A stretch of DNA of 41,162 nt. Source: Chloroflexi bacterium HGW-Chloroflexi-1 (lineage in GTDB: Bacteria > Chloroflexota > Anaerolineae > CG2-30-64-16). The DNA is taken from contig PHCA01000041.1 in NCBI GenBank assembly GCA_002842085.1, positions 1 to 41,162 of the forward strand, read 5' to 3'. Under the pieces are notes generated by a model. It ran no database searches. It saw nothing but the letters and a program-made list of their open reading frames with translations, and was not told the DNA's origin. Numbering within the stretch: the first letter of the stretch is position 1; every line of letters starts with the position of its first letter. Positions 11,341 to 40,203 of the stretch are shown here, one piece after another. The translations under genes and the position numbers were made by a program.

Positions 11341-11627
11341 AGATGGCAAATGGCAAATGGCGGATGGCAGATGGCGGATGGCAGATGGCGGATGGCAGAT
11401 GGCGGATGGCAGATGGCGGATCGCAGATGGCGGATGGCAGATGGCAGATGGCAGATGGCGGATGGCAGATGGCAGATGGCGGATGGCAGATGGCAGATGG
11501 CGGATGGCAGATGGCAGATGGCGGATGGCAGATGGCAGATGGCAGATGGCGGATGGCGGATGGCGAATAGCAGTGGCAAACCGGCAATCGCAAATCTGAA
11601 ATCGCAAATCGCAAATCGCGACCTTCG
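11341..11627. repeat. Heptamer tandem arrays: (GGCAAAT/GGCRGAT) about 33 units, then (AATCGCA) about 6 units
   Basis: Read directly. Starts 2 nt after the pcrA TAG stop and generates the spurious MADGRWQ ORFs. Confidence 0.97.
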
Positions 11628-11640
11628 CAAGGTTCTTTGC

Positions 11641-11925
11641 CTAAACAGAAACTGGCCTGAGCCACGCACGGGCGAGTATCCAGCGGCCGAGCAGCCCCTG
11701 GCTGCCGGCCGCAGCGAGCCGCAGCTCGAAGGTCTCCTGCGTGGGCGTGCGGACCAGGTAGCAGCGCCACACGACCCCATCGACCTCTTCCAGCCACTCG
11801 CGGCCGGTGTCGGCGATATAGCGGGTGCGCTCGCGCCAGATGAAGGCGGTCGGCACGATCCGACCGTCGGGCATGAACCGGGCCTGGACGAGGATCGGTT
11901 CGTCCACGAATTCAGGTAGGGACAT
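11641..11925 (-). CDS. Small hypothetical protein (about 94 aa)
   Basis: Protein-like composition (MSLPEFVDEPILVQARFMPDGRIVPTAFIWRERTRYIADTGREWLEEVDG..). ATG at 11925 has GGAGA 7 nt upstream. I recognise no family. Confidence 0.45.
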   Translation of the reverse strand: MSLPEFVDEPILVQARFMPDGRIVPTAFIWRERTRYIADTGREWLEEVDGVVWRCYLVRTPTQETFELRLAAAGSQGLLGRWILARAWLRPVSV

Positions 11926-12640
11926 GAGTTTCTCCAACAAACGTTACGACGCGGTGACCCTGGACATGGGGTTCACCCTGGTCAATCTGGAGGGCAGCAC
12001 GCATCGCGATCTGCTCGCCGCGCTGGCGGCAGAAGCGGGCCTGACCCTGACCCTGGACGACGTTCGTCGGGCGATACGCGCTTTCTGGCGCGAGTGGACG
12101 GCCGAAAATGCCACGCGCGTGTGGCATCCCAGCCTGGCCCAGGATCAGGCCTCCTCCTACGAGATAGACCAGCAAATCTGTCTGCGGCTGGGCATCACCG
12201 ACCCGGCTCTGCACGCCGAGGCCAACCGCCGTTCGGAGGCGATCTTCCACGACCTGGCGACCTTCCAAGTCTTCCCCGAGGTGTTCGAGGCGTTGACCAC
12301 CCTACGAACGCAGGTGGAGACCCTGGGCATCCTCTCCAACTGGGGGTGGCGATTGCCGGAGTTGTGCGCGGCATTGGGCCTGGCCGACTACTTCGACTTC
12401 ATCATCACCTCGGCCCGGATCGGCGCGGCCAAACCCCACCCGAACATCTTCCGGGCCGCGCTCGCCCGGGCTGCGAGCGACCCGGCGCGCACCCTGCACG
12501 TGGGCGACGATCTCGCCGCGGACGTGCACGGCGCCCAGGCGCTGGGCATCACCGGCGTATTGCTGGACCGGCACGGCGCCATCACACCCGACGGTTTTCC
12601 TGTCGTGCACAGTCTCACCGAGGTGGTGACGCTTTTGTGA
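11924..12640 (+). CDS. HAD-superfamily hydrolase, subfamily IA (haloacid dehalogenase / REG-2-like type)
   Basis: Motif I VTLDMGFTL (DxxxT type), motif II ILSNW, motif III AKPHPNIF, motif IV HVGDDLAADVHGA. Confidence 0.85.
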   Translation: MSFSNKRYDAVTLDMGFTLVNLEGSTHRDLLAALAAEAGLTLTLDDVRRAIRAFWREWTAENATRVWHPSLAQDQASSYEIDQQICLRLGITDPALHAEANRRSEAIFHDLATFQVFPEVFEALTTLRTQVETLGILSNWGWRLPELCAALGLADYFDFIITSARIGAAKPHPNIFRAALARAASDPARTLHVGDDLAADVHGAQALGITGVLLDRHGAITPDGFPVVHSLTEVVTLL

Positions 12641-12770
12641 CACGGTGACCGGGTGACAAGGTGACATCGAGTAACATCGCTGTGCCTCCTTGTTTACTCT
12701 TGTCTACTTGTCTACTTGCCTACTTATCCCTTGTCTACTTGTCTACTTGTCTACGCGTTTCCTTGTCTCC
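12637..12770. repeat. Paired octamer arrays: (GGTGACAN)x4 (12637-12668) and (CTTGTCTA-like) about 10 units (12689-12770)
   Basis: Read directly. Lies between the convergent HAD and pncC genes. The HAD TGA stop (12638-12640) is inside the first unit. Confidence 0.95.
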
Positions 12771-13263
12771 TCAAATACCGTACCAACAGCCGCAACACCG
12801 CCTCGGCCGAGAGCCGTTTGTTCCCGATCCGATCAGCGTCCCACACGTGTCGCTCGCCGATCTCCGCGTCGGCCGCCGAGAGGTGGAGATGCACCAGCCC
12901 CACCGGCTTGCCTGGCAGCCCGCCCTCCGGCCCCGCGATGCCCGTCACCGAGGCCGCGATGTCCGCGCCGAAGAGCCGTCGCGCGCCCTGCGCCATCTCC
13001 GCGGCCGTCTCCGCGCTCACCGCGCCGTGGGCCAGCAGCGTTTCGTGCCGCACGCCCAACACCGCCTCCTTGGCGCTGTAGGCGTAGGTCACCGCGCTGC
13101 CCAGGAAATAGTCCGAGCTGCCCGACACGTCGGTGACCAGACTGCCGGTCAACCCGCCCGTGCACGACTCGGCCAGCGCCAGGGTCAAGCCTTGCGCTGT
13201 CAGGAGTCGGCCAACTTCTTCGGCCAACACAAGTGCCGACTGTAAGTTGTGCATGTTATGCAC
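12751..13263 (-). CDS. pncC: CinA C-terminal-domain / nicotinamide-nucleotide amidohydrolase PncC family protein
   Basis: LALAESCTGGL..SLVTDVSGSSDYF..VTYAYSAKE..LGV....HGAVS.E.A..MA.G......ADI..SVTGIAGP.GG...KPVG.V. This is a typical CinA/PncC signature. GTG start with GAGGA upstream. Confidence 0.88.
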   Translation of the reverse strand: MHNMHNLQSALVLAEEVGRLLTAQGLTLALAESCTGGLTGSLVTDVSGSSDYFLGSAVTYAYSAKEAVLGVRHETLLAHGAVSAETAAEMAQGARRLFGADIAASVTGIAGPEGGLPGKPVGLVHLHLSAADAEIGERHVWDADRIGNKRLSAEAVLRLLVRYLRRQGNA

Positions 13264-13323
13264 TTGATCCTCAAGATTCCGGTTGATAGTTCCCCAGCCA
13301 GCGAATGCGCGGGTAATCTGCGT

Positions 13324-13435
13324 GGATGGCGGATGGCGGATGGCGGATGGCGGATGGCGGATGGCGGATGGCGAATGGCGAATGGCGGATGGCGAATGGC
13401 GGATGGCGAATGGCGAATGGCGGATGGCGGATGGG
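13324..13435. repeat. Heptamer tandem array (GGATGGC/GAATGGC) x16
   Basis: Read directly: 112 nt, 16 units. Lies between the divergent pncC and moxR genes. Confidence 0.97.
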
Positions 13436-13731: not shown

Positions 13732-14697
13732 ATGGAACACCTCGAGGTCATCGCCTCGCTGGCCGAGCGAGTGGTCGACAACGTCGAGCACGTGATCATC
13801 GGCAAACGACGCGAGGTGGAGATGACGCTGATCGCGCTGCTGTGCGAGGGGCATCTACTGATCGAGGACGTACCGGGCGTCGGCAAGACGATGCTGGCGC
13901 GCGCGATCGCCAAATCGATCGGCTGCTCGTTCCGGCGCATCCAGTTCACCCCCGACATGCTGCCCAGCGACGTCACCGGCGTCTCGGTGTTCAACCAGAA
14001 GACGCGCGAGTTCGAGTTCCGGCCGGGCCCGGTCATGGCCCAGATCGTGCTGGCGGACGAGATCAACCGGGCCACCCCCAAGACCCAATCGGCCCTGCTG
14101 GAGGCGATGGAAGAGCGCCAGATGACTGTAGATGGCGTGACCTATATCATGGAGAAACCGTTCCTGGTGCTGGCGACACAAAATCCGATCGAATACGAGG
14201 GCACCTTCCCGCTGCCCGAAGCGCAAATCGACCGCTTCATGATGCGGGTGAGCCTGGGCTACCCCGCCAAAGCAGACGAGATTCGCATCCTGGAATCGCA
14301 GCGGGAACATCACCCGATCCAGGACATCGGTCAAGTGGTGACGGCCGCAGAGTTGTTGGCCGCCCAAACCGCGGTGCGCCAAATCTACGCGGACAATCTG
14401 ATCAAGGAGTACATCGTCGATCTGGCCAACGCCACCCGCCACCATCCGGACATTTACCTGGGCGTAAGCCCGCGCGGCAGCCTGGCCCTCTTCAAAACGG
14501 CCCGCGCCTACGCGACCTTGCAAGGCCGCACCTACGTCATCCCGGACGACCTCAAGGCGCTGCTGGCATCGACCTTTGCGCACCGCTTGATCATCAGCCC
14601 GTCGGCGCGCATCAAGAACGTCGAGGCCACCGCCGTCGTCGAGCAGATCGCCGCGTCGGTGCCGGTGCCAGGGACGCGGGTGAGGGCCATACGGTGA
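13732..14697 (+). CDS. moxR: MoxR-family AAA+ ATPase
   Basis: AGGAG lies 8 nt upstream. [33 protein letters not shown] (Walker A), [23 protein letters not shown] (Walker B / sensor), [22 protein letters not shown]. Confidence 0.93.
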
Positions 14698-14767
14698 CAC
14701 GGTGACAGGGTGACAGGGTGACAAGGTGACGGGGTTGTCTACTTGTCTACCTGTTTCCTTGTCTACC
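14693..14767. repeat. Paired octamer arrays: (GGTGACAN)x5 followed directly by (TTGTCTAC-like) x4
   Basis: Read directly. The moxR TGA stop (14695-14697) is inside the first unit. Same unit pair and order as at 12637-12770. Confidence 0.95.
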
Positions 14768-14786
14768 CCAAAGCGAGGTCCAACCA

Positions 14787-16067: not shown

Positions 16068-16112
16068 GTCCCACCAGCCCGAGCAAGCAGACACGGCCAG
16101 GATACTTGACAC

Positions 16113-16250
16113 GGGGTAAATTGGTAAATTGGTAACGGGGTGAATTGGTAAATTGGTAACGGGGTAAATTGGTAAATTGGTAACGGGGTAAATTGGTAAA
16201 TTGGTGACAGGGTGACCAATCTACCAACCTACCAACCTACCAATCTACCA
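16113..16250. repeat. Hierarchical array: 24-nt unit GGGGTAAATTGGTAAATTGGTAAC x4 (itself built of GGTAAATT octamers), then GGTGACAGGGTGACC, then (CTACCAAY) x4
   Basis: Read directly. Ends at the ATG (16251) of the S8 peptidase. Confidence 0.95.
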
Positions 16251-18218
16251 ATGTCTCACCAAACCCGACAGATCCTGCGCTTGACCGCGGTCGCGGCGAT
16301 CCTCCTGGCGCTCGTGGCAACTGCTACCAGCACCGGTATCAACCTGGCCGCGGCCGGTAGCGGCGCTCCTCGACCGGCGCCCGCTGCGTCTGCGCCCGCT
16401 GCGTCTGCGCCCGACCGCGGCCAACCGGACTGGGCCGCGCCACGCGTGGCAGACCAGTTGCTGGTCAAGCTGCCGGATGGCCAGGCCCTCCCGGACCAGG
16501 CCGCGCTGGCCCGCGCGGGTGTCCGCCTCCTGCGCACCATCCCGCAATTGGGGCTGGCAGTAGTCGCAACGCGGCCCGGCGCCGATCTGGCGGCCTCTGC
16601 TGTCGATCTGGCGGCCTCTGCTGCCGATCTGGTGGATCGCGGCGGGTTCGCGTGGGCCGAGCCCAACTACACCTTCGGCCTGGACCTGGCGCCGAACGAC
16701 CCGGACTACGCCGCGCGCCAGAGCGTCTACCTGGGCCGGATGGGCATGCCCGCGGCCTGGGACCGCACCACCGGCCTCCCCTCGATCATCATCGCGATCG
16801 TAGACACCGGCGTGGACCTGACCCACGAAGATCTCTACAAGGGTATCTGGATCAACCCGGGCGAAGTGCCGGGCAACGGCGTGGACGACGACGGCAACGG
16901 TTTCGTGGACGACGTCAACGGCTGGGATTTCGCGGACAACGACAACGTACCAGACGACGACTACGGCCACGGCACCCATGTGGCGGGCATCGCGGCCGCG
17001 CGCATCGACAACGCCGTGGGTGTTGCCGGCATGGCCGGCGCCGCCACCATCATGCCCGTGGACGTGTTCCCGCACAGCGCCTACGGCACCTACGAGGATT
17101 TGATCCGGGCGATCATCTACGCGACCGACAACGGCGCAAACGTCATCAACATGAGCCTGGGCGCCACTTCCTACAGCCAGGGCGAAGAAGCTGCGGTGGA
17201 CTACGCCTGGTCGCACGGCGTGGTCGTGGTCGCGGCGGCCGGCAACACCGGCCGCTGCTCCTACCACTATCCGGCAGCCCATGTCCACGCGATCGCCGTG
17301 GCGGCCACCGACGCTTACGACAACCTGGCCGGCTTCTCGACCCGCGGCGACTTCGTGGACGTGGCCGCGCCCGGCGTGGGCGTCTGGTCCACCTACCGCG
17401 GCAACCGCTACGGCTCGATGAGCGGCACCAGCATGGCCACGCCGCACGTGTCGGGGCTGGCCGCGCTGATCCTGTCGCTGAACCCGAACCTGACCCCGGA
17501 CCAGGTGCGCACGCTCATCGAGGCCAACGCCGACGACCTGGGCGCGCCCGGCTGGGATCCCGAGTTCGGCCACGGCCGGATCAACGCCGCGCGGGCGTTG
17601 GCCGCCGTGCCCGGCAACACCACGCCGCTGCCCACGCCCACGCCGCATCCGCCGCTGCCCGAGTGGCCGGCCGGCTGCCAGGACCTGCTCGACGATGGCG
17701 ACTTCGAGGCGGGCGCCGCGGTCTGGCAGCCGCACGGGGACGTCACGATCGACGCGCTGCGCGCCTACTCCGGCGCCCACGCCGCGCATTTTCCCGGCGG
17801 GCCGGACACCCGCGGCATCCTGACCCAGACGATCACCCTGCCCCCCTTCCCCCAAGAAGCCACCCTCTGGTTCGCCTACCGCATCGAGAACCAGGATCAG
17901 GGCTGGGGCAGCACGTCCGAAGCGCCCTATGACGACTGGTTCACCGGCGAGTTCCGGGCGGCCGACGGCCGCGTCATCAGCTCACTGCTGCGCACCGGCA
18001 ACTCGGCCGACACCGCGTCCGATGGGCTGCCGTGGGATCGCTATCTGTACCGGATGCAGTTCGCCGATCTGACGGCTTTACGGACGGCCGGCTCAGTGGA
18101 CCTGGTCTTCAGCGCGGGGAACGACGGGGACACGCTGCCCACCGACGTCTGGCTGGACGCGGTGCGCTTCTGCGTCAGGGGCGGGTATGGGTGGATTTTC
18201 CCGGTGATCTTGAAGTAG
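16251..18218 (+). CDS. Secreted subtilisin-family (S8) serine peptidase with a C-terminal CBM-like domain
   Basis: Catalytic triad contexts IAIVDTGVD, GHGTHVAGIAAA, GTSMATPHVSGLAAL. N-terminal TM/signal LRLTAVAAILLALVATA. The C-terminal domain (CQDLLDDGDFEAG...VWLDAVRFCV) resembles the C-terminus of the 6231-8489 hydrolase. The ORF also opens at GTG 16212, inside the repeat array. Confidence 0.92.
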   Translation: MSHQTRQILRLTAVAAILLALVATATSTGINLAAAGSGAPRPAPAASAPAASAPDRGQPDWAAPRVADQLLVKLPDGQALPDQAALARAGVRLLRTIPQLGLAVVATRPGADLAASAVDLAASAADLVDRGGFAWAEPNYTFGLDLAPNDPDYAARQSVYLGRMGMPAAWDRTTGLPSIIIAIVDTGVDLTHEDLYKGIWINPGEVPGNGVDDDGNGFVDDVNGWDFADNDNVPDDDYGHGTHVAGIAAARIDNAVGVAGMAGAATIMPVDVFPHSAYGTYEDLIRAIIYATDNGANVINMSLGATSYSQGEEAAVDYAWSHGVVVVAAAGNTGRCSYHYPAAHVHAIAVAATDAYDNLAGFSTRGDFVDVAAPGVGVWSTYRGNRYGSMSGTSMATPHVSGLAALILSLNPNLTPDQVRTLIEANADDLGAPGWDPEFGHGRINAARALAAVPGNTTPLPTPTPHPPLPEWPAGCQDLLDDGDFEAGAAVWQPHGDVTIDALRAYSGAHAAHFPGGPDTRGILTQTITLPPFPQEATLWFAYRIENQDQGWGSTSEAPYDDWFTGEFRAADGRVISSLLRTGNSADTASDGLPWDRYLYRMQFADLTALRTAGSVDLVFSAGNDGDTLPTDVWLDAVRFCVRGGYGWIFPVILK

Positions 18219-18246
18219 GGCAAATGGCAAATGGCAAATAGGAAAT
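18219..18246. repeat. Heptamer array (GGCAAAT) x3-4
   Basis: Begins at the nucleotide after the S8 peptidase TAG stop. Same unit as the first units after the pcrA stop. Confidence 0.9.
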
Positions 18247-18720
18247 CCGTGCTTCATAAATGATTTTTCGGCCCGAAAGTGGGCGACTTTGCGTCATTTG
18301 AATCTTGCAGCTATCCATAGCGCGGCCTCCCGCCGCAACCAAAGGGCTGTCATTGCGAGGGCCTCGCTGTGGCGAGGGCCTCGCTGTGGCGCGAGGAGCG
18401 CCGTTTGCGGTTGCGAGGCACGAAGCAAAGCAATCTCCCTCGCTAACCAGGAAATTGCGGCAATCGAGATTGCGGCAATCTCGATTGCTTCGCAAAACCG
18501 CTCGCAATGACGCCGTTAAAGATTCTCGCTATCAACGCAAATGTCGCTGGGTCATACTATAGCGCGGCCTCCCGCCGCAACCAAACCCCTTTCGTTGAAA
18601 GGCCCTTTCGTTGAAAGGCCCTTTCAACGAAAGGCGTTTTCAACGCAAAGGCACAAAGACGCAAAGAAATCAAAAAGGCCTTTGCGTCTTTGCGTCTTTG
18701 CGTTGAAACCCGGCGAAGCA
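18247..18720. repeat. Composite repeat island (nested direct, tandem and inverted repeats), with no convincing CDS
   Basis: 27-nt perfect direct repeat ATAGCGCGGCCTCCCGCCGCAACCAAA at 18317-18343 and 18559-18585. 17-nt tandem GCGAGGGCCTCGCTGTG x2 (about 18353-18390). 16-nt tandem CCCTTTCGTTGAAAGG x2 followed by its inverse (about 18586-18635). GCAATCnnGATTGC palindromes (18469-18495). CAAAGACGCAAAG / CTTTGCGTCTTTG inverted pair (18653-18700). Confidence 0.85.
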
Positions 18721-20787: not shown

Positions 20788-23700
20788 TCACCCCTCCCCC
20801 ATTGTGGACAGACGTTGTGCAAAGGCCGCGGCCAGAGCGTAGCCATCACCCGACAGCCGGGTCACCTGGCAACCGGCCGCCCGCAACGTCCCCTCCGCGG
20901 TCGCCGCCATCTGATCGCCCACGATGATTACCTCCGCGGCCTGAGCAGCTTCATCCAGGCTGAAGCCGCCGCTGGCCCCGATCCGGCGTAGATAACGCGT
21001 GGCCAATGCCAGCGCCAGGCGCGCTTCCGCGTCCCCGGCCGGCCCGCCCCCGCCTTCGGGCGGTGACCCAAAAAGCAGATAGTGCGCCAAAGGTTTGCGC
21101 GGCCCGGGGGGCAAGTTGATGTCTTGGGTCAACGTGGCGTCCTCGGCCAGGCGGATGTCGGTGACCAGCGGCTCACCATCGCCCGGTGGGCCGCCCACCG
21201 CCAGCGTGTAGACGCCGCCGGCCAATCGAGCGAACCGGAACGCGCCCGCACTGTCGGTCTGCGTCCGGGCGACTTCCTGCCCCTGGCTGAGCAGCAGCAC
21301 CAGGCGGTCGGGTTGAGGCACGCCGTTCGCCAGCACCCGGCCCTGGATCACCCCGCGCGGGCCCGAGCCGCCCCACAACACGTCGCACACCTGTTCCCGC
21401 TGGCCGTCCAACACGATGCCGCCCGCCACCTCGCCCATGCCCGCCGCCTGCAACGAGTAGATACCGGCCGGCAGGTTGGCGAACCGGTACGTGCCGTCGG
21501 CCGCGGTGTGGGCCTGCGTCACGATCAGCCCCTCCCGGCGCAGGATCATCAGGATATCGGGCTGGGGTTTGCCCGCGCCGTCCGCGACCCGGCCGCGGAT
21601 CACGCTGCGCTGGCCCCGGGCCAGGTCGATGGGCGCCAGTTGCAGGCTGTTCTCGCCGGTCAACTCCAGGTCGGGCAAAACCTGATCGGCCACCTCCAGC
21701 CGGTACAGGCCGGGTGGCAAGCCCTCGAACGCGAAGCCCCCGGCGGGATCCAAGGGGGCCTGGCGCGTCCAGCCCCACGCCAGCGGCGCGTAGAGCACCG
21801 CGACCAACCCATCGGGCGGATCCAGGACCCGGCCGCTCAAGCGGCTGCGCAGCGGGAAGATCAGCCGGTAGAGCCCGCCCGCTTCCAGTTTGATTTCGTC
21901 GGCGATGACACCGATCCCGGCCAGCTCCAGCCGATAGCTGCCCGGCGCCAGATCGGGGAAGGCAAAGCTGCCATCTTCGCCCAAGGCCATTTCCTGCGCC
22001 CCGGCGACGCCGGTCAGCTTGATCTTGCGGCCGGGCTGCCCGCCGGGCGCCGACCCTTCGGCTGTGCTCAGGACAAGCCCGTCCAACCGGGTCGGGCTGG
22101 CCACCGTCTGCAAACGGAAATCGACCTGGTAAGTGATCGGCTGGCCGGCGCGGCCGGGCACGTTGGCGGTGTCCAGGTCGTCAGCCACCTCGCTGGGCCA
22201 GTCCCCCTGGATCACCCGGATGCTGAAGACGCCGGGGGTGTTCAGGAACTCATAGCGGCCGGCCGGCTTGATTGGATCGCGGCCGGTGGTCGTGGTCGGG
22301 AAAGTGGCGCCGGGCGCGGCGCTGTGCCAGACCATCTGAAGTTTGATGCCGTTCAGCGGCACACCGTCGATGTCCGATACCGTGCCGTAGAAAAGGCGTC
22401 GCCCGGCGGTCTCGGCTTCAGGTAACAGGCGCCGCTGGGTGACCGCGTACCGATACCCGGCCGGCGTCCCGGTGGTGAGCTTGATGTTCTTGGTCGCCCA
22501 TCCATCCAGGGCGATCCCCGCCACGGTGATGCCCGGGATCGAGAGTTTGTAGCTCCCCAGTGGCAGGCCCGAGAACCGAAAACCGCCATCGGCGTCGGTG
22601 AGGGTCTCGCCGATCGATGCGCCCCGCGATGGGCCGCCATCTCGCCACAATGTCACGGGGATGCCCGCGCGCGGGGCGTCGGTGTAATCCAGAACCTTGC
22701 CGGTCAGTGCGCTGCTGCGGCCGCCGGCCAACCGGATAAGAACCGGCAACCCGGGCTCCGGCGCGGCGGTCACCCCCCGGCGCACGATGCCCCAAGGCGC
22801 CACGGCCAGATCGTAGATGCCCGGCGTCAAGCGCTCCAGGCGAAACGCACCATCGTCTGCCGACGTCGCGCTGGCGACGACCTGATCCCCGGCCCGGAGA
22901 TCGACCTGCAAGCTGGGCAGCGGCTCATCGGTGTCGGCGCGCAGCAATTGGCCGGCCACCACAGCCTGTTTGATCTGCGGCGCCACCTGGCTGGGCATGG
23001 CCTTGACGGCCGCCACCACCGGTAACTCACCGCTCAAGTTGAAGTCGGTGTTCCACCAGTCGCTGTACCAGGACTGGCTCTCCCAGCCGGGCGCCATGAA
23101 GCCCAGGCGGTAGTTGCCCAACAGCCAGTAACACATGGTAAAGTAACTGTCCGGACAACGGATGCCGTGAATCTCCCGACCGCCCTGCATGAAGTCGTTG
23201 ATCGCGACGACCCACCCGGCATGCGTCGTCGGATCCAGCCGGGGATAGCGTTGATCGTCCTTCCAGCCTACCACCGGTCCGCCTTCGGTGCTGATGATCG
23301 GCACTGTGTGGCCCAGGGTCTGGAAGAGCATGTCGTCCATCAGATAAAACGCCAGGAAACAGGTCGCATCATCGACCAGGGTATCCCCGGGGTTCTTATC
23401 CGCCGCTCGCCACTGGTTGATCAGCTCGCGGGGGCGGCCCTCCCAGGCCCACGGCCCGAGCCGGTCGTACTCCTCCTGACTCACCGGCACGCCCTCCTGG
23501 TTGACGCTGTCGTAGGGATAGTCGAGCGGGTGATTGAGGGTGTAGTTGTGGATGGCCACCCACGCGCCCTTGTCGAACAGGTCGGCGCGGCCCTTATCCA
23601 CGACGCGCTGCACGGGGTTGAATCGGCTGCTGATCCCCATCGCCGGCAGCGCGGGCAGACCACCCAGGGCGATGACCTTATCCGCGTCGATGATGAAATT

Positions 23701-29728: not shown

Positions 29729-29746
29729 CAAGGAGGAAGACAAGCA

Positions 29747-30688: not shown

Positions 30689-33624
30689 GGACGGCTATCG
30701 GTCGCCAGAAACCAGGTTTCTCTAAGAAACCTGGTTTCTGGCAACGAGCAAGTGCGATCCGGTTTCGGCGCGAAGCCGGGTTTTTGATCTTGGTCGCCCT
30801 GCTTGGATTGCTCCTGCGCGTCCTCCGCCTGGATTTTCAGCCCCTCTGGTGGGACGAAGGCTATTCCGTCTGGTTCGCCACCCACCCGCTGGGCCAGATG
30901 GCCGCGCTGACGGCCCAGGACATCCACCCGCCCCTCTACTACGCGCTGCTCCACGGCTGGACTACCCTGCTGGGGACCGGGCCGATCGCGTTGCGGCTGA
31001 TGTCCGTGGCCTTCGGCGCGCTGGCGATCCCCGCGATCTACCTGGCCGGGCGACGATTGCTGAACCGGCGGGCCGCCCTCCTGGCCGCCTTGCTGTTGGC
31101 GATCAACCCCCTGCACATCTACTACAGCCAGGAAGTGCGCATGTACGGGCTGGTGGCGCTACTGAGCGCGGGGATCCTGGCGACGATCGGGGGGTGGGCG
31201 AATTGCCGATTTCGGATTTCGGATTTCGGATTTCGAATTACTCCTTGTCACCAGCCCCGCACGGTGTTAGCGGCTGGCGCCAGGCCGGTCACCTTGTCAT
31301 CAGTCCCCTACGTGCTCCTGGCGACCGCCGCGCTGTACACGCAGTATTATGCCGTTTTCCTGCCGGTCGGCCTGACGCTGTACGCGCTGTGGCGGTGGCG
31401 GCGCGATCCGGCCGCGCTGGGGCGGTGGCTGGCCGCACAGATTGCCGTCGCCGTGCTCTACCTGCCGTGGGTGATCTATGCGGCGCCCAGGCTGGCGCCC
31501 TACGTCAGCCAGAAGGTGGTGGCGGACGCTGACAGGCCGCTCGGGTTGTTAGCCTACTTTGGCCGGCACCTGGCCGCGTTCCTGGCCGGCCACCTGGAAG
31601 GCCCGCTGACCGCATGGTGGCCGGTTGTGCTGGCGCCGATAGGGATATCAGGTATTTGGTATTGGCGTTGGTGGAAAGTTGGCCGGCGCAGCGGAAATTC
31701 AGCCCATCCAATACCTGATACCCAATACCCAATACCCAATACCCAATACCCAATACCCAATACCCAATACCCAATACCCAATACCCAATACCCGGTCATG
31801 CTCGCCACTGTCACCGGCGTCGCGCTCCTGCTCGGCTGGCTCATCGGCCTCACCTACCCATTCTTCCCGGAGCGAGGCGAGCGATTGCTGTTGCTGGCGC
31901 TACCGCCGTTCATCCTTCTGGTCGCGGCCGGGCTGGATGCGCTGTGGTCGCGGTCGCGGCTGGCTGCCTGGGGCACAATCGCGCTGATCGGCGCGGTCGC
32001 CGGGGCGGGCCTGTGCGCGTTCTACACGACGCCCCGCTACCCCACCGACGACTACCGGCCGCTGATCGCCCACACGGTCGAGCTGGGTTTGCCCGAGGAC
32101 ACCGTCTTCTGCGTCTACCCGTGGCAGGTCGGCTACTGGCGTAGCTATGACTGGCGTAGCTATGCCAGTAGCCGACCTGCCGGCCCGAACGCCGTCCTGA
32201 CCCCCGACGCGACCTGGTCCCCGGCCGTGTCGGACGTGAACGCCTGGTATGGGCCGGGCACCCGGCTCAGCGCGTGGGCGTTCGCGCCGGGAGGGCAGCC
32301 CGTGAACGCGGCCACCGTGCGTTTCCCGCTGCCTGGCGTTGGCGCGGTGAAACTGGTAGGCGTCACGGCCGCGCTCGATCCCGTGCCCGCTGCGAACGCG
32401 GTGACGCCGGTCACGTTGCGTTGGGCCGCGGCCGCGCCGCCGCCGATCCTGGGTGTCAGCGTTCGTCTGGTCGATGACCTGGGCCAGATTTGGGCGCAGC
32501 ACGATTACGAGCCGCTGGGCGGCCTCTCCGCTCCGGCACAAACCAGCGCGCAGGGCACATCATCGGCAGAAGCCTGGCAAGCGGCCTGGGAGGCTGAGGA
32601 TCGCCTGGGCCTGCTCATCCCCGCGGGCACACCGCCCGGACGCTACGCGGTCGAACTGGCCGTGCGCCCAAAGGACGAGGCTCGCTCGCTGGACGCGTTT
32701 ACCCCCGCTGGCGTCGCACTGGGCCCAGCGGTCCCCCTGTTCGAGATCACCGTTGCCCCGGCGGACCGGGTCCTGGGTCGGGAGCGCCTGCCCATCGGCG
32801 TCAACCGATCGACCGACATGGAGGACGGCTTGCGTTTCCTCGGCTACAGCGCGGCCGAGGCCGTGGCCACGCCGGGTGAGCTGCGCAAGATCAGCCTCTT
32901 CTGGCAGACCACCGCCGCGCTGGCGGCCGACTACACGGCTTTCGTACAACTGCTGGACGCGGATGGCGGGGTGGCGGCCGGTTGGGAAGCGCCGCCCGGC
33001 GCCGGTTACCCGACGACGCAGTGGGCGCCGGACACGCTGGTCCGCACCCAGGCCGCGTTCCGGGTCCCCGCGTCCCTACCCGCCGGCCGCTACCGGCTGA
33101 TCGCGGGCCTGTTCAACCCGGCCGATGGCGCGCGCTTGCGGACAGCCGCTGGCGCCGACCATCTGGCCCTGGGCCCGATCACCCTGCGCGGCCGGCCCCA
33201 CGAGATGACCCCACCTGGCCCGGCCCACGTCGCGGACGTGCGCTTCGGGGACGTGGGCCGGCTGGTTGGCTATGATCTGCCCGAGACCGGCAGTGCGGCC
33301 GGCGCGGCGCTGCCACTCACCCTGTACTGGCAGGCAACCGGTGCGACCGACCGGGCATACACCATATTCGTGCACCTGCTGGACCCGGCCGGCGCGCTCC
33401 GCGGCTTCGGGGATGGCGAGCCGGGCGGGGGTCAGTTCCCCACCACGGGCTGGCTGCCCGGGGAGTACCTGGCCGACCGCCACGAGGTCCGCATCGTCGC
33501 GGACGCGCCTCCTGGCGAGTATCGATTAGCCGTCGGCCTGTACGACCCCGCGACCGGCCAGCGGCTGCTCACGGCCGACGGGGCGGATCAGGTGGTGCTG
33601 GACATCTCGGCGCCAATCCGATAA
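30673..33624 (+). CDS. Membrane glycosyltransferase, family 39 (ArnT/PMT-like), with a large duplicated C-terminal extracytoplasmic domain; start uncertain
   Basis: LRVLRLDFQPLWWDEGYSVW...DIHPPLYYALLHGW is the usual GT39/PMT_2 N-terminal signature, with many TM segments. ATG 30673 overlaps the upstream gene, and a 17-bp hairpin (30705-30741) lies after it. An alternative TTG at 30784 would start just before TM1. Confidence 0.82.
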   Translation: MEREVGTAIGRQKPGFSKKPGFWQRASAIRFRREAGFLILVALLGLLLRVLRLDFQPLWWDEGYSVWFATHPLGQMAALTAQDIHPPLYYALLHGWTTLLGTGPIALRLMSVAFGALAIPAIYLAGRRLLNRRAALLAALLLAINPLHIYYSQEVRMYGLVALLSAGILATIGGWANCRFRISDFGFRITPCHQPRTVLAAGARPVTLSSVPYVLLATAALYTQYYAVFLPVGLTLYALWRWRRDPAALGRWLAAQIAVAVLYLPWVIYAAPRLAPYVSQKVVADADRPLGLLAYFGRHLAAFLAGHLEGPLTAWWPVVLAPIGISGIWYWRWWKVGRRSGNSAHPIPDTQYPIPNTQYPIPNTQYPIPNTQYPVMLATVTGVALLLGWLIGLTYPFFPERGERLLLLALPPFILLVAAGLDALWSRSRLAAWGTIALIGAVAGAGLCAFYTTPRYPTDDYRPLIAHTVELGLPEDTVFCVYPWQVGYWRSYDWRSYASSRPAGPNAVLTPDATWSPAVSDVNAWYGPGTRLSAWAFAPGGQPVNAATVRFPLPGVGAVKLVGVTAALDPVPAANAVTPVTLRWAAAAPPPILGVSVRLVDDLGQIWAQHDYEPLGGLSAPAQTSAQGTSSAEAWQAAWEAEDRLGLLIPAGTPPGRYAVELAVRPKDEARSLDAFTPAGVALGPAVPLFEITVAPADRVLGRERLPIGVNRSTDMEDGLRFLGYSAAEAVATPGELRKISLFWQTTAALAADYTAFVQLLDADGGVAAGWEAPPGAGYPTTQWAPDTLVRTQAAFRVPASLPAGRYRLIAGLFNPADGARLRTAAGADHLALGPITLRGRPHEMTPPGPAHVADVRFGDVGRLVGYDLPETGSAAGAALPLTLYWQATGATDRAYTIFVHLLDPAGALRGFGDGEPGGGQFPTTGWLPGEYLADRHEVRIVADAPPGEYRLAVGLYDPATGQRLLTADGADQVVLDISAPIR
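30705..30741 (+). terminator. Perfect 17-bp hairpin CCAGAAACCAGGTTTCT-CTA-AGAAACCTGGTTTCTGG (no U-tract)
   Basis: Read directly. Lies 17 nt after the stop of SH3b paralog 3 and inside the longest GT39 ORF. Confidence 0.5.
31207..31241 (+). repeat. Heptamer array (GGATTTC) x5 inside the GT39 CDS
   Basis: Read directly. Translates as ..NCRFRISDFGFRIT.. within the open frame. Confidence 0.9.
31710..31793 (+). repeat. Heptamer array (AATACCC) x12 (10 perfect units) inside the GT39 CDS
   Basis: Read directly. 84 nt = 28 codons, translating as [30 protein letters not shown]. Confidence 0.95.
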
Positions 33625-36063: not shown

Positions 36064-36108
36064 GAAAAATCATTTGTGAAACGCAAAGCACGTTCGGGCA
36101 CTTGCAGG

Positions 36109-36140
36109 TTACTCATTACTCGTTACTCGTTACTCGTTAC
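36109..36140. repeat. Heptamer array (TTACTCG) x4-5
   Basis: Read directly. On the minus strand it is (GTAACGA)n and starts 2-3 nt after the guaA TAA stop. Confidence 0.9.
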
Positions 36141-36142: not shown

Positions 36143-37804
36143 TTACTCCCACTCGATCGTCGCGGGCGGCTTCGAGCTGATGTCGTAGACCACCCGGTTG
36201 ACCCCGGACACTTCGTCGACGATGCGATTGCTCACCTTTGCCAGCAGGTCGTAGGGCAGACGCGCCCAATCGGCGGTCATGAAATCGTCGGTGGTGACGG
36301 CGCGCAGGCCGATTGTGTCGGCATAGGTGCGGCCGTCCCCCATCACGCCAACAGAGCGCACCGGCAGCAGTACAGCGAACGCCTGAGACGTGGCCCGGTA
36401 CAGCCCGGCGGCCCGCAACTCCTCCAGGAAGATGGCATCGGCGGCGCGCAGCGTCTCCAGCCGCTCCCCCGTGACCTCGCCCAGGATGCGGATGGCCAGC
36501 CCCGGCCCGGGGAACGGGTGCCGCCAGACGATCTCCTCCGGCAAGCCCAGCGCGGCGCCCACGGCCCGCACCTCGTCCTTGAACAGATTGCGCAGCGGCT
36601 CGATGAGCTGGAAGGTCATGTCCTCAGGCAGTCCGCCGACGTTGTGATGCGTCTTGATCGTGCGCGCGGTGCCCTGTTCCGCGCGGCTGGCCGACTCGAT
36701 CACGTCGGGGTAGAGGGTGCCCTGGGCCAGGAAAGTGGCGTGTGTGCCGCAATTGCTGCGCAATTGCTTAGAAGCGCCGCTCTGTTCGCCCGCGATCAGG
36801 GCCTCGGTGATCTCGAACGTCCGCACGAACCGCGCTCCGATCCGCTTGCGCTTGACCTCCGGGTCGGTCACCCCGGCCAGGTCGGCCAGGAACTCCTCGC
36901 TGGCCTCCACCGTGATCAACTGCATGCCCATGTGCTGCTCGAAAGTCTCGACGACCTGCTCGGCCTCATCCTGGCGCAGCAGCCCATGGTCCACGAAGAT
37001 ACACGTGAGCCGGTCCCCCACCGCCCGGTGGATCAACGTCGCCGCGACCGCGGAATCCACCCCGCCGCTCAACCCGCAGACCACCGACCCGCCCCCGACC
37101 TGGGCGCGAATCTCCGCCACCGCCTCCGCGATGAAGTTGGCCGGCGTCCAATCCGGCGTGCAACCGCAGATATCTACCGCAAAATTGCGCAGGATGTCCC
37201 GGCCCTGCGGCGTGTGCTGGACCTCGGGGTGGAACTGCACGCCGTAGATGCCGACCGCCACGTTGCCCATGGCCGCGATGGTGGCTCTTGCGGGCATGGG
37301 GTACTGGGTATTGGGTATTGGGTATTGGGTATTGGAGACGGCCAGCGGAACGAAGGACGGCGGCAGGGCGGTCACGTGGTCGCCGTGGCTCATCCAGACG
37401 GCTAATGGCAGATTGCAGATTGCAGATTGCAGATTGGTAAAGAGCGGATTGGGAGCATCGGTCAAGGTGATTTCGGCAGGGCCGTATTCGCGACGGGCGG
37501 CGGGGTCAACGGCGCCGCCGAGGGCGCGGGCCAGCAGTTGCATGCCATAGCAAATACCTAATACCGGTTTCCCCGCGGCCAGGACGAACGGCGGCAGGGT
37601 CGGCGCACCCGGCTCGTAGACGCTGGCCGGGCCGCCGGAGAGGATATAGCCCTGCGGATCGAGGCCAGCGAACCGCTCCGCGGGCGCGTCCCACGGGATC
37701 AGCTCGCAGTAGACGTGCTGCTCGCGCAGCCGCCGTGCGATCAGTTGGCTGGTCTGCGAGCCGTAGTCGAGGATGGCGATGGTGTCGTGGGCTGCCTGGC
37801 TCAT
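36143..37804 (-). CDS. guaA: GMP synthase (glutamine-hydrolysing)
   Basis: [30 protein letters not shown] (GATase). LSGGVDSAV (PP-loop), [40 protein letters not shown] (C-terminal end). ATG 37804 overlaps the upstream stop (ATGA). Confidence 0.95.
37295..37336 (-). repeat. Heptamer array (AATACCC family, plus strand TATTGGG) x6 inside the guaA CDS
   Basis: Read directly. 42 nt, translating as [14 protein letters not shown], just upstream of the conserved YGVQFHPE block. Confidence 0.93.
37408..37435 (-). repeat. Heptamer array (plus strand GCAGATT) x4 inside the guaA CDS
   Basis: Read directly. Translates as NLQSAICNL, immediately before the conserved WMSHGD. Confidence 0.93.
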
Positions 37805-38139
37805 GGCGCCGCGTCTCCCGCGTCGAGCGTCTCTGCGCGCCATTCCGGCGCTTCCTCGCGCACGGCGACCCGTGCGGCTGTGGTCAGCGCGCGCAAAGGG
37901 TAATGGCGGAGCAGGTGAATGGAGTAGCCGGTTTTGACCAAAGTATCTATCTGCTTTTGCCCCATACTATCCACGGCATTTAGGATGGCGTCATCATCCC
38001 AGAAATCCTGGCTGGGCGCCATCATGCAGATGTCCGCAGATTGCCGGCCACCAGGATAGGCCTCCAGTTTCACACCGGGAAGCCGAGTCTGGAGGTCGCG
38101 CATGAACTCGTCAACCATCATCTGGAGTTTCTTGTTCAT
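37801..38139 (-). CDS. Small protein coupled to the HEPN gene; possibly a degenerate minimal-nucleotidyltransferase-like partner
   Basis: ATGA start/stop overlaps at both ends (38136-38139 and 37801-37804). Lower GC than its surroundings. [20 protein letters not shown] loosely parallels the GS..G....SDIDLLV motif of MNT proteins, but the second Asp is missing. Confidence 0.45.
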
Positions 38140-38528
38140 CGTAGCTGCACCTCAACAGCGGACACCAAAACCCTGGTCTTCTGAAGGGCATGCTGCGCCA
38201 CCTTGCGACTGGTGGCAGACACGGTGTAATCAGCGATTCTTCGGATGTCGAAGATTTGTGGGAGTAGCGGCGCCAGATCGGCCGGATACAATTTCCGCCG
38301 ATGAACCAGCACGCCGGAAAAGCGCGCCTGGACGAAGTCGTGCTCCCATTGGCCCCGTCCGCCTGCCGGTCGGACACTCGCGGCGATCAGCGCGACAACC
38401 GCGGCCTGGAACATGGCGTAGTAGCAACGGTTGGCGCAGTTGTTGTAGCGCCCGTCGGTAAACTCGCTCTCGGCGCCGGTCAGGCTCTCGGTCGCTTCGA
38501 TCAGATAGGCCAGGCAATCAGCATCCAT
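38136..38528 (-). CDS. HEPN-domain protein
   Basis: ATG 38528 with GGAG about 10 nt upstream. GRYNNCANRCYYAMFQAAVVALIA ... IFDIRRIADY matches the HEPN (PF05168-type) helix pattern as I know it. Confidence 0.78.
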   Translation of the reverse strand: MDADCLAYLIEATESLTGAESEFTDGRYNNCANRCYYAMFQAAVVALIAASVRPAGGRGQWEHDFVQARFSGVLVHRRKLYPADLAPLLPQIFDIRRIADYTVSATSRKVAQHALQKTRVLVSAVEVQLR

Positions 38529-38550
38529 GGTAGACACTCCGCCGGAGGCG

Positions 38551-39120
38551 TTACTCCAGCACGATCTGCCCATTGTCCATGCTGGTGATAACCGCGAGGG
38601 TCTCGATGGGCACGCCGAGATCGGTGAGGGCGGCGCGGCCCCCTTCGAAGCGTTTCTCGATCACCGCGCCGATGGCGACCAGCGTGGCGCCCGATTTCTG
38701 CACCAGGTCCACCAGCGCGCGAATCGTCTCGCCGCGGGCCAGGAAGTCATCGATCACCAGGACGTGGTCACGCGGGCCGAGAAATTCCGGCGAGATCATC
38801 AACTCGGTCATCACGCCCTTGGTGTGCGATGGCGCATGGGCGATCATCGTGTTGGGGTGCATGGTGACGGGCCTGGTCTTGCGGGCGTAGACGACGGGCA
38901 AGCCGAGCGCCAGGGCGGTGGTCAGCGCGGGCGCAATACCGCTGATCTCGGCGGTGACGATCTTGTTCGCGCCCAGGTGGGCGAAGCGCGCGGCCAGCGC
39001 GCCGCCCACAGCCAGCATCAAGGCCGGGTCGACCTGGTGGTTGATGAAGCTGTCCACCTTCAGGATGCCATGCCCCATGTTGACGCCTTCGCGCATGATG
39101 CGTTCCTTGAGAAGTTCCAT
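38551..39120 (-). CDS. xpt: Xanthine phosphoribosyltransferase
   Basis: MELLKERIMREG...ILKVDSFINHQVDP...TAEISGIAPAL...VLVIDDFLARGET...AIGAVIEKRFEGGR is full-length similar to Xpt. The ATG directly abuts the stop of the upstream GT2 gene. Confidence 0.93.
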   Translation of the reverse strand: MELLKERIMREGVNMGHGILKVDSFINHQVDPALMLAVGGALAARFAHLGANKIVTAEISGIAPALTTALALGLPVVYARKTRPVTMHPNTMIAHAPSHTKGVMTELMISPEFLGPRDHVLVIDDFLARGETIRALVDLVQKSGATLVAIGAVIEKRFEGGRAALTDLGVPIETLAVITSMDNGQIVLE

Positions 39121-40203
39121 TCAAGACACCCCTCTCGTCTTCGACATTTGCCAATGCACCTCGGGATCCCGCCAATGTCGCAGCCGCCAGACCCACCCGG
39201 CCGGGTAGCCGACCATCTTCGCCACGTCGCCCACCGCGCGGATGGCCGGGATCAGCGCAATGGCCCGGAGCTGGTCGACGGGGGCGAGATTGAGCAGGTG
39301 GGCGTGCAGCCGGCGGAAGGGGGTGCGGCAGTAGACGACGGCGCCGCCGGCCAATCCCAGCAACCATAGCGGGCTGTGGGCGATGCTCAAGATCAACACG
39401 GCAGGCAGGGCAACGAGATACGTGGCATAACGGATGGCGTGGCGCTTCCGCCAGAGGTCGGCCTTGCCATCGCCACGGGCGTAGCGGTAGTATTGCTTGA
39501 AGTAAGCGCGCATGGAGCCCCGCGGCCGGAAATGGGCCACCGCGCCCGGCGCCCACACGAAAGGCCCGGTCGCGTCTTGCAACCGGAAGTCAAAGATCAG
39601 GTCCTCGCAGTAGTCCAGCCACTCCGGGTAGCCACCCGCGGCCGCCCACGCCTCCTTGCGAAACGCCACCGACCGGCTGGATGGCAGGAAGGCGCCTGGA
39701 TCGACGTCACCGATCGCTGGCAACACCGTCGCGCCCATCGCAGCCTCGAACGGGGTCTGCGGGTCGGGGACGAAGAAGCCGGCGACGGATTGGGGATTGG
39801 GGATTGCGGATTGCGGATTGCGGATTGCGGATTTGCGATTTGCCGATTGGTCGATTTGCTGATTCGCTGATTCGCTGATTTGCCCGCTTTCCAACGGCGC
39901 GACCAACGCAGCGAGCCAGGCTGGCTCCAACCACACCCCCGCGTCGGTGGATGCGATCACGTCGCCGGTGGCAGTCCGGATGGCCACGTTGCGGCCGCGG
40001 GAGATGTTGGCGCCTGGTTCGATCAACACGCGCAGCTTCAGCCGGTCCGCGTACGATTCGATCACCGCGACGGTGTTATCGCGCGAGCCGCCGTCCACGA
40101 TCACGACCTCGTCGGGTTGCCGGGTTTGAGCCACCAGGCTGTCCAGCATCCGGCGGATCGATTCCCCTTCGTTGAGCACGGTACAAATGACGCTGACGCG
40201 CAA
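39121..40203 (-). CDS. Family 2 glycosyltransferase with C-terminal TM segments
   Basis: TTG start with GGAG upstream. VSVICTVLNEGESIRRMLDSLVAQT....EVVIVDGGSRDNT...ISRGRNVAI......IASTDAG (GT2 DxD-type core). Confidence 0.85.
   Translation of the reverse strand: MRVSVICTVLNEGESIRRMLDSLVAQTRQPDEVVIVDGGSRDNTVAVIESYADRLKLRVLIEPGANISRGRNVAIRTATGDVIASTDAGVWLEPAWLAALVAPLESGQISESANQQIDQSANRKSAIRNPQSAIPNPQSVAGFFVPDPQTPFEAAMGATVLPAIGDVDPGAFLPSSRSVAFRKEAWAAAGGYPEWLDYCEDLIFDFRLQDATGPFVWAPGAVAHFRPRGSMRAYFKQYYRYARGDGKADLWRKRHAIRYATYLVALPAVLILSIAHSPLWLLGLAGGAVVYCRTPFRRLHAHLLNLAPVDQLRAIALIPAIRAVGDVAKMVGYPAGWVWRLRHWRDPEVHWQMSKTRGVS
39787..39884 (-). repeat. Degenerating 7-8 nt array (plus strand GGATTGG/GGATTGC/GATTTGC/GATTCGCT) inside the GT2 CDS
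   Basis: Read directly. Translates as SGQISESANQQIDQSANRKSAIRNPQSAIPNPQS between GT2 core segments. Confidence 0.9.

Follow-up and report, generated by a model that had tools for sequence, protein, structure and literature searches.

The window analyzed here is the whole 41,162-nt stretch of contig PHCA01000041.1 (assembly GCA_002842085.1) from Chloroflexi bacterium HGW-Chloroflexi-1, an uncultured groundwater bacterium whose nearest relatives are Anaerolineae/Caldilineae-like. The UvrD/PcrA and GuaA proteins encoded in the window match proteins of this metagenome-assembled genome exactly. The subject of the study is a set of tandem arrays with units of 7 or 8 nt that are scattered between and within the genes of this window. 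Gene order was obtained from Pfam scans and from gene calls on other assemblies. The first part comprises pcrA, a HAD hydrolase gene, cinA, a moxR-DUF58-S8 peptidase series, and the gene for a large CarboxypepD_reg protein. It is followed by the gene for an endonuclease/exonuclease/phosphatase-family protein, three SH3 paralogues, a PMT_2 glycosyltransferase gene, the gene for a beta-lactamase-like protein, and guaA; a HEPN gene and the genes for a phosphoribosyltransferase, a GT2 glycosyltransferase, and a serine acetyltransferase are located at the end. The G+C content is ~65% throughout.

Location and units of the arrays

The entire window was searched for arrays with 7- or 8-nt units using Tandem Repeats Finder (TRF). 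Twenty-three were found, with a total of 1312 bp; this amounts to 3.19% of the window, in agreement with the "about 3%" of a preliminary description made from the sequence alone, and to 21.4% of the intergenic DNA. At a score of at least 40, TRF gave 20 rows with a period of 7 or 8; the mean for 30 dinucleotide-preserving shuffles was 0.07, with a maximum of 1. All arrays named in the preliminary description were recovered by TRF, with boundaries that differed by a few bases at most. Its list was incomplete, however, as it lacked those at 18643-18667 (ACGCAAAG), 18680-18703 (CTTTGCGT), and 40430-40446 (CATTCGCC). The arrays are positioned as follows:

11339..11564: (GGCAGAT/GGCGGAT) x32; starts within the TAG stop codon of pcrA/uvrD (8946..11339, + strand)
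11586..11619: (AATCGCA) x5; a direct variant of the adjoining GGCAAAT-type unit
12637..12666: (GGTGACAN) x4; includes the TGA stop codon of the HAD hydrolase gene (11924..12640, + strand); left arm of an inverted pair
12689..12768: (CTTGTCTA) x~9; right arm of the inverted pair with the GGTGACAN array; the TAG stop codon of cinA (12751..13254, - strand) is provided by TAGACAAG, the reverse complement of CTTGTCTA
13324..13434: (GGCGGAT/GGCGAAT) x16; divergent region between cinA (-) and moxR (+)
14691..14735: (GGTGACNN) x5; includes the TGA stop codon of moxR (13732..14697, + strand)
14735..14766: (TTGTCTAC) x4; ends 20 nt 5' of the DUF58 start (14787); fold z = -2.7
16111..16213: (GGTAAATT) x~12 with a 24-nt higher-order period, then (GGTGACAG) x2; left arm of an inverted pair
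16215..16252: (CCAATCTA/CCAACCTA) x5; adjoins the ATG of the S8 peptidase gene (16255), without a Shine-Dalgarno sequence between them
18219..18246: (GGCAAAT) x3-4; begins at the first base past the S8 stop codon
18643-18667: (ACGCAAAG) x3; left half of a perfect inverted array pair
18680-18703: (CTTTGCGT) x3; right half of that pair, after a 12-nt gap; fold of 18643..18703, -42.9 kcal/mol, z = -9.0
24117..24229: (GGGTATT/GGGTATTT) x15; 27 nt 5' of the CarboxypepD_reg gene start (gene at 20788..24090, - strand)
29629..29729: (GTGGTGC) x5, then (TCCGCAA) x6; 133-nt spacer of SH3 paralogues, followed by an AGGAGG Shine-Dalgarno sequence
31208..31239, + strand: (GGATTTC) x4.6; in frame in the PMT_2 glycosyltransferase gene (30673..33624); encodes RFRISDFGFRI
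31708..31793, + strand: (CCAATAC) x12; in frame in the PMT_2 gene; encodes (IPNTQYP) x4
36108..36140, - strand: (GAGTAAC) x4.7 as read on the gene strand; 2 nt past the guaA stop codon, in the spacer to the beta-lactamase-like gene
36143..37804, - strand: guaA, encoding GMP synthase (553 aa); contains the next two arrays in frame
37292..37335, - strand: (CAATACC) x6; in frame in loop 2 of the glutamine amidotransferase domain of guaA; encodes 15 residues
37408..37436, - strand: (CAATCTG) x4; in frame in loop 1 of the same domain; encodes NLQSAICNL
39786..39884, - strand: (CAATCCG) x9 (39786-39849) overlapping a (ATCGGCAA)-type array x7 (39825-39884); in frame in the GT2 gene (39121..40203, - strand); together they encode ISESANQQIDQSANRKSAIRNPQSAIPNPQS and divide the GT-A domain
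40430..40446: (CATTCGCC) x2; a remnant, whose counterpart of ~12 copies in another assembly (L005) adjoins the serine acetyltransferase stop codon

Intergenic DNA held 975 of the 1312 bp of array sequence. Arrays were present in 10 of 21 spacers, or in 10 of 16 when only spacers of at least 75 nt are considered (our own count), and they accounted for 16-86% of the array-bearing spacers (63-86% in five of them). The earlier statement that arrays occupy most spacers was somewhat overstated, and its placement of all arrays in spacers was incorrect, as six of the 23 lie in frame within genes. Six arrays touch or almost touch stop codons, namely those of pcrA, the HAD gene, cinA, moxR, the S8 gene, and guaA. 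The stop codons of pcrA (TAG), the HAD gene (TGA), and moxR (TGA) are inside the first array unit, and the arrays past the S8 and guaA stops begin 0-2 nt downstream. The S8-gene ATG at array 16215-16252 leads into a signal peptide.

For the analysis of unit diversity, about 48 kb of this organism were considered, in which 33 arrays collapsed to 23 canonical units. Units recurred far beyond chance: 13 pairs of arrays had identical units (0.6 expected, maximum 4), and 36 pairs were at most one base apart (6.7 expected). The largest cluster comprised 10 arrays around GGCRGAT/GCGGATT, and a composite junction, GGTGAC-CAATCTACC, was present at two loci. Higher-order periods of 14, 15, 21, 22, and 24 nt, composed of variant units, were also reported by TRF. 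From our own reading of the TRF output against the gene map, units were found in both orientations relative to transcription.

Several known types of element were considered. A clustered regularly interspaced short palindromic repeat (CRISPR) array was ruled out; the 7-8-nt units are contiguous and have no spacers between them. The whole window had no match in Rfam at gathering thresholds. A run of at least three G per unit in at least four units, as in G-quadruplex-forming heptamers, was found only in the GGGTATT family (24117-24229, 31708-31793, and 37292-37335). In the other 20 arrays no unit has a G run longer than GG, and the arrays as a whole do not belong to that class.

Inverted pairs and arrays within genes

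Adjacent arrays were inverted complements of one another in 14 of 20 cases; 2.1 were expected, and the maximum in 2000 random pairings was 8. Thirteen inverted pairs were folded. Long hairpins of -36 to -82 kcal/mol (z of -5 to -9) were obtained for 10 of them, and the remaining three, all from the window, were weak (z of +0.3 to -1.3). Lone arrays had less structure than their shuffles (z = +1.6 and +2.2). In eight of 11 cases the sense-strand hairpin was weaker than that of the antisense strand; because the sense RNA is not the more stable strand, selection for mRNA structure is argued against, and RNA-level selection on the hairpins was rejected. A scan of 11000-30999 for promoters and terminators yielded 12 terminator-like sites, compared to a shuffle mean of 11.6, and none was at a listed array. 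The notion that inverted pairing is peculiar to this clade was also rejected, as eight of 17 adjacent pairs in low-GC metagenome contigs were inverted; it is probably a feature of arrays of this kind in general.

The 488-nt spacer 3' of the S8 gene has dispersed repeats of another kind than the tandem 7/8-nt arrays (window 18316-18660). TAGCGCGGCCTCCCGCCGCAACCAAA occurs there twice, and each time repeats prone to hairpin formation come after it, namely GCTGTCATTGCGAG...CTCGCAATGAC, ATTGCGGCAATCGAG x2, and the palindrome CCCTTTCGTTGAAAGG x3. Relatives of these repeats occur just upstream of the window in contig L003 (1-175 and 385-440). The elements at 18316-18587 look like separate elements of the repetitive extragenic palindrome (REP) or miniature inverted-repeat transposable element (MITE) type. 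In addition, GGCTGTGGCCGGTCTCCTGACCGAGCCAC (window 40343-40377) is half of a ~50-nt palindrome that is complete at another locus of the genome (L003 218-262).

The six in-frame arrays are distributed over guaA and the genes of the GT2 and PMT_2 glycosyltransferases. In the same frame, the third codon positions on either side of each in-gene array had a G+C content of 0.80-0.91 (0.80-0.88 around the PMT_2 array at 31208..31239). With units of 7 or 8 nt, the frame is kept only by the total length of the insert. The repeats within open reading frames (ORFs) of Borg elements are said to be near-perfect, with unit lengths divisible by three; the in-gene units described here are not of that type. 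Comparison to solved GuaA structures (5tw7 and 1gpm) placed the guaA arrays in two loops of the glutamine amidotransferase domain, with a net insertion of ~14 residues by the loop 2 array relative to both. In the AlphaFold model of GuaA (mean predicted local distance difference test score, pLDDT, of 79.6), the loop 2 insert is predicted to be coil between two beta strands, with a pLDDT of <50.

Similar cases were found elsewhere. Metagenome contigs that contain (CCAATAC)4 had in-frame arrays in genes for a semialdehyde dehydrogenase, RsmA/KsgA, a SpoIID protein, and an NHL-repeat protein; in the semialdehyde dehydrogenase, the dimerization domain is split by GSWQMAD and IPNTQYP repeats. Complete inverted-pair modules were present inside the coding sequences of a helicase (L013, from a Caldilineaceae metagenome-assembled genome, MAG) and of RsmA (L132). 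The helicase, an MrfA/Hrq1-like DEAD protein, contains three or four in-frame arrays, in one of which a would-be TGA was eliminated through point changes.

A third insert in guaA of the window (36748-36768, residues ~344-353) is lineage-specific, has low model confidence, and includes an 11-nt tandem duplication (CGCAATTGCTG x1.9). Other relatives have unrelated inserts at this site; that of protein P0077, GKHPERT-GKHPERS, likewise looks like the product of a heptamer array.

Other assemblies and relatives

The arrays recurred in four other assemblies, i.e. from ENA (contigs L001 and L005), JGI (L002), GCA_017973855.1 (L003 and L006), and Logan SRR3546457 (L004), whose flanking sequences were 99.9-100% identical to the window. 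The array at 11339..11564 was identical in L001 and L002, and the L003 and L004 contigs end within this 226-nt array, as is usual for assemblies at a repeat. The in-gene arrays were the same in all assemblies. Because the arrays were reproduced in independent assemblies, they are not an assembly artefact, as the preliminary description had allowed they might be; the conservation of in-frame arrays between species was also used to rule this out.

Differences in copy number were seen at three intergenic sites. A (CCAATCTA)6 array is present in L001 between the GGTGACNN and TTGTCTAC arrays and absent at window position 14735; the CCAAYCTA array at 16215, upstream of the S8 protease gene, has five copies in the window and ~16 in L001; and the array at 40430 (ATTCGCCC) has two copies in the window and ~12 in L005. 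Four stretches were absent from the window relative to other assemblies (L001, L002, L003, and L005): 125 nt at position 4127 in a VWA-domain gene, with a frameshift that places the ORF end at 4413 rather than 4396; 114 nt at 32223-32235, in frame, in the PMT_2 gene; 64 nt at 27068-27073, in the gap that separates the first SH3 gene from the endonuclease/exonuclease/phosphatase-family gene; and 105 nt at 40446, by which the stop codon of the serine acetyltransferase gene was lost together with the larger part of an array. These may be strain variants or misassemblies. Since the window has deletions outside arrays as well, the copy-number differences are not separable from assembler effects, and their use as proof of hypervariability was downgraded, with collapse in de Bruijn assembly as a possible cause.

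Array density was compared to that of guaA neighbourhoods from 79 other species (1.30 Mb). It was 4.62 per 10 kb in the window and 0.162 in the neighbourhoods, a ~29-fold difference, so that the preliminary description was not refuted by its own test of density against related genomes; 66 of the 79 neighbourhoods had no array. The trait is patchy. Densities of 5.8-10.9 arrays per 10 kb were found in L005, from the same organism, and in the closest relatives, L087, L088, and L209. None was present in the guaA neighbourhood of L007, the closest GTDB representative (76% GuaA identity), and 11 were present in 21.5 kb of L013 (67% identity), with other units including GGGGATT. Most GuaA proteins of Anaerolineae and Caldilineales are 519-526 aa long and have no inserts, whereas the closest ones (77-83% identity) have heptapeptide repeats in the same two loops. 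Individual sites were compared between the window and four loci of relatives (L087, L088, L209, and L210):

guaA loop 2: (CAATACC)6 in the window; (CTCCAAC)6 in L087 and L088, from the same start base; empty site in L209; decayed CAATACC remnant in L210
guaA loop 1: (CAATCTG)4 in the window and L087; (CAGGGAT)7 + (CAGCATC)8 in L088; decayed (CAACCGG) array in L209; no array detected in L210
Spacer 3' of the guaA stop codon: GAGTAAC in the window; AGTAACG (= GAGTAAC) in L209; AGTGCGAT in L087; AGTGAGAT in L088; no array detected in L210

Arrays were also present in the GT2 gene of L087 at a site matching that of the window. The same sites (the guaA loops, the spacer past guaA, and GT2) are occupied in relatives by arrays of different length and sequence, as in known long simple-sequence repeats. 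Since sites are kept with differing or decayed units, array positions appear to persist while units are replaced in concert or decay. The empty loop 2 site of L209 had no obvious local seed for CCAATAC.

Special conservation of the guaA loop 1 array was considered and rejected, as the whole 5' 450 nt of guaA (window 37355-37804) were 92-100% identical between the window and L087, a species with 83% identity; the rest of the gene was ~75-80% identical. As judged from sequence, this mosaic suggests recombination between lineages. Upstream of guaA, the window has a HEPN-domain gene and an overlapping 112-aa ORF (37801-38528), possibly a toxin-antitoxin pair, between the phosphoribosyltransferase gene and guaA. 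In L087, L088, and L209 the phosphoribosyltransferase gene directly adjoins guaA, and the spacer in L087 and L209 holds an inverted array pair instead.

When metagenomes were scanned for (CCAATAC)4, matches came from at least 120 contigs, whose G+C contents were 22-67%, and the unit is accordingly not lineage-specific. As the scan had no control heptamer, no conclusion on the horizontal spread of CCAATAC was drawn. The octamer of window 18643-18667 was also observed, as (ACGCAAAG) x9, at 401-473 of L045, a Desulfuromonadales MAG from an unrelated phylum.

Class and origin of the arrays

Heptamer tandem arrays have been known since 1990. The short tandemly repeated repetitive (STRR) sequences STRR1-3 of heterocystous cyanobacteria, reportedly described by Mazel et al. 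in that year, are said to be CCCCAGT, TTGGTCA, and CAACAGT. None of the 23 canonical units equals these three, and the host belongs to the Chloroflexota; the arrays are therefore not STRR sequences in the strict sense. They do consist of head-to-tail 7- or 8-nt copies above chance, at many dispersed loci with few recurrent unit families, and are mainly non-coding and near ORF starts or stops despite the six in genes. They are STRR-like heptameric long simple-sequence repeats, a class already described. The preliminary description had rightly emphasized the high density and unit diversity in a high-GC, non-cyanobacterial host, but its view that the arrays could not be assigned to a described class is contradicted by the heptamer arrays, present at many loci beside ORF ends and variable among close relatives, of Xanthomonas and Nostoc (PMC4692102), of Beggiatoaceae, Microcystis, and Bacteroidetes (PMC4679880), and of Chloroflexus aurantiacus (PMC6749651). 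Among the long simple-sequence repeats of many bacteria, those with heptanucleotide units are the most abundant (Mrazek et al. 2007, as cited in PMC4679880 and PMC4692102). Among the papers searched, none dealt with such arrays in Anaerolineae or Caldilineae. What is new here is a dense case in Chloroflexota, of which the in-frame arrays in catalytic domains and the series of empty, filled, and decayed sites are the most informative parts.

Like the STRR sequences and the GGGGA(C/T)T repeats of Nostoc PCC 7120, the arrays have tandem 7-nt units at dispersed loci, belong to a few recurrent families, and are mostly beside ORF ends, including those in intra-operon spacers. (CCAATAC)n-type arrays occur in Nostoc too, and the Nostoc unit GGGGATT was found in L013. 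Unlike those repeats, they are in a Chloroflexota host of ~65% G+C, have units other than STRR1-3, and feature 8-nt units as prominently as 7-nt units; G-quadruplex potential is confined to the GGGTATT family. About one-quarter of the arrays are in frame in genes, whereas Rehm et al. (PMC4692102) observed a strong non-coding bias.

The GGGAATC repeats of Xanthomonas, which occupy the same gene gaps in related species with variable length and sequence (Rehm et al. 2015, PMC4692102), resemble the present ones in having a high-GC host, occasional inverted arrangements, and host genes from every functional class. They belong essentially to a single unit family, in which four copies are preferred; here there are many families, up to 32 copies, and a dominance of inverted pairs. 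TAACTGA repeats are known from marine Beggiatoaceae, Microcystis, and some Bacteroidetes (MacGregor 2015, PMC4679880). Those of Beggiatoaceae overlap stop codons, take the place of Shine-Dalgarno sequences, and are now and then found within ORFs. The present arrays likewise overlap upstream stop codons, run to the next start, often with no Shine-Dalgarno sequence, are in some cases translated as heptapeptide repeats, and cause contig breaks. In Beggiatoaceae, however, one heptamer is favoured in a consistent orientation, with one inverted set in 170, and in-ORF copies for the most part lie at the ends of proteins or in hypothetical ones, not in catalytic domains of conserved enzymes as here.

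Satellite family Fam_1_14_23 of C. aurantiacus has the consensus GATAGaAgATAGGA and 23 loci (Subirana and Messeguer 2019, PMC6749651). Inspection of the published consensus shows it to be a doubled heptamer. The family is thus from the same phylum, heptamer-based, and scattered genome-wide, with a different unit. C. aurantiacus has 14.4 satellites per Mb in all, compared to ~460-560 arrays per Mb here (from 41 kb, and with different detection thresholds); in-gene arrays or inverted pairs are not mentioned in the text consulted. The tandem repeats of Borgs are described by Schoelmerich et al. 2023 (PMC9879509) as fast-evolving, independently arising, and adding disordered segments to proteins; Borgs are extrachromosomal archaeal elements, whereas the present arrays are on a bacterial chromosome.

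The arrays are considered to be self-perpetuating, largely non-adaptive, STRR-like short-unit satellites, with a probability of ca. 0.65; both the neutrality and the mechanisms are inferred from the patterns described above. Replication slippage would give rise to arrays and change their length, and slippage together with gene conversion would homogenize units, so that a whole array could switch its unit in concert. Template switching onto the opposite strand would create inverted partner arrays, which would account for the fact that adjacent arrays are mostly hairpin-forming inverted pairs. Units or modules may be copied between loci by ectopic recombination. Selection would act as a filter on survival. 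In spacers, arrays would be tolerated downstream of a stop codon, which they often provide themselves, and ahead of the Shine-Dalgarno sequence or start that comes next; in genes, they would be tolerated at surface loops, provided that their total length is divisible by 3 and that they are read in an orientation without stops. Such in-gene arrays would later decay by point mutation to ordinary lineage-specific loop sequence.

Several points weigh against this interpretation. Slippage at each site alone does not explain the same units at many loci, the composite junction at two loci, or the inverted-pair modules in the coding sequences of the L013 helicase and L132 RsmA; given the unit recurrence and the in-gene hairpin modules, some copying or seeding process is needed. 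The retention of array positions at 77-83% GuaA identity could be a sign of function instead of tolerance. Collapse by the assembler, rather than polymorphism, may underlie the copy-number differences between assemblies; this bears on the assumed hypermutability. Finally, the sample of the clade amounts to ~60 kb, and the window was selected for its array richness.

It is unlikely, if still worth consideration, that the arrays are cis-regulatory elements at gene boundaries, acting in mRNA or DNA, with hairpins that serve as terminators, attenuators, or stabilizers, or with one protein bound per 7-8-nt unit. A unit-binding protein or regulatory role has been suggested both for the TAACTGA repeats of Beggiatoaceae and for the Nostoc heptamers upstream of recF and recO; deletion of the heptamers altered the responses of the recO promoter (bioRxiv 10.1101/2022.06.06.494920), and TAACTGA repeats stand in for Shine-Dalgarno sequences (PMC4679880). 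The arrays that begin at or in stop codons, the one that adjoins the S8 start, the positions kept between species despite unit change, and the very stable hairpins of most folded inverted pairs are in keeping with such a role. Several observations speak against a single sequence-specific regulatory role, however: the units are diverse (at least 23 in about 48 kb), occur in both orientations to transcription, lie within coding sequences as well, are absent around guaA in L007 and most other relatives, and form hairpins without strand bias. The low structure of lone arrays, the chance-level number of terminator-like sites, and the lack of an Rfam match also speak against it. In view of the conserved gene-boundary positions, a regulatory or structural role is conceivable for a subset of the arrays.

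Two further explanations were judged to be very improbable. In the first, the arrays would be mobile or enzymatically laid down, alone or as inverted-pair modules, by a hairpin transposase related to IS200 or to REP-associated tyrosine transposases (RAYT), by a reverse transcriptase, or by a template-switching polymerase. The recurrence of units, the shared composite junction, the whole modules in coding sequences, the patchy distribution, and the seedless empty site of L209 would all fit, and the C. aurantiacus family was judged "probably transposed" by Subirana and Messeguer (PMC6749651). Units, however, drift continuously. As to elements of the MITE or REP type, copy number and unit were observed to vary from array to array. 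No target-site duplication, terminal inverted repeat, or conserved full-length copy was obvious at the array ends that were read, although no dedicated search was made, and no transposase or reverse transcriptase was found among the Pfam-scanned ORFs of at least 100 aa in the 41-kb window. Same-site arrays with different units in different species fit turnover in place. The other explanation, to which marginally less credence was given, is that of contingency loci, in which gain or loss of units would tune expression from a promoter or 5' untranslated region, or shift the frame of a gene, and so bring about phase variation. A one-unit change in an in-gene heptamer array would indeed shift the frame, and assemblies of a genome that is otherwise 99.9-100% identical disagree on three arrays. 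Those differences may be assembler collapse, however, and the in-gene arrays are the same in all assemblies. The hosts are mostly housekeeping genes (guaA and, elsewhere, those for RsmA, semialdehyde dehydrogenase, and the helicase) whose loss would be harmful, and many arrays are 3' of genes, between convergent stops. Rehm et al. (PMC4692102) were likewise led to a negative answer for Xanthomonas and Nostoc.

A more far-reaching proposal, which we regard as improbable, is that the array-rich state is a heritable, lineage-specific syndrome. Underlying it would be a property of replication or repair, or a dedicated activity, through which 7-8-nt arrays, together with their inverted partners, would be seeded and copied across the genome, even into essential genes; this would be a main source of new surface loops and intergenic sequence. 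If so, the recurrent units and the hairpin modules in coding sequences would be traces of a hitherto undescribed insertion or template-switch mechanism rather than of slippage at each site, and the reading would extend from these Chloroflexota to cyanobacteria and Beggiatoaceae.

The clade provides a dense, high-GC, non-cyanobacterial case in which heptamer arrays can be compared between species. One guaA loop that is empty, filled with either of two units, or decayed makes the life cycle of an array traceable. Arrays can add loops of 7-aa repeats to core enzymes, as in GuaA and GT2 here and in RsmA, semialdehyde dehydrogenase, and the MrfA-like helicase on related contigs, and the excess of hairpin-forming inverted pairs and the patchiness among lineages are testable clues to mechanism.

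There are practical consequences as well, as the arrays fragment short-read assemblies and yield spurious short ORFs in databases. A protein search with (IPNTQYP)6 for hosts of in-frame CCAATAC arrays returned only short, domain-less ORFs (from Nostoc, Taibaiella, an Anaerolineae MAG, and others) and yielded no count of host proteins; these ORFs are probably spurious calls on intergenic arrays. Gene callers were observed to place short ORFs without a recorded Pfam domain on arrays, for example a 75-aa "gene" that consists entirely of the GGCAGAT array (L002 12398-12625). Proteins P0122-P0167 resemble array-derived ORFs by sequence, and such ORFs stand in public databases as hypothetical proteins.

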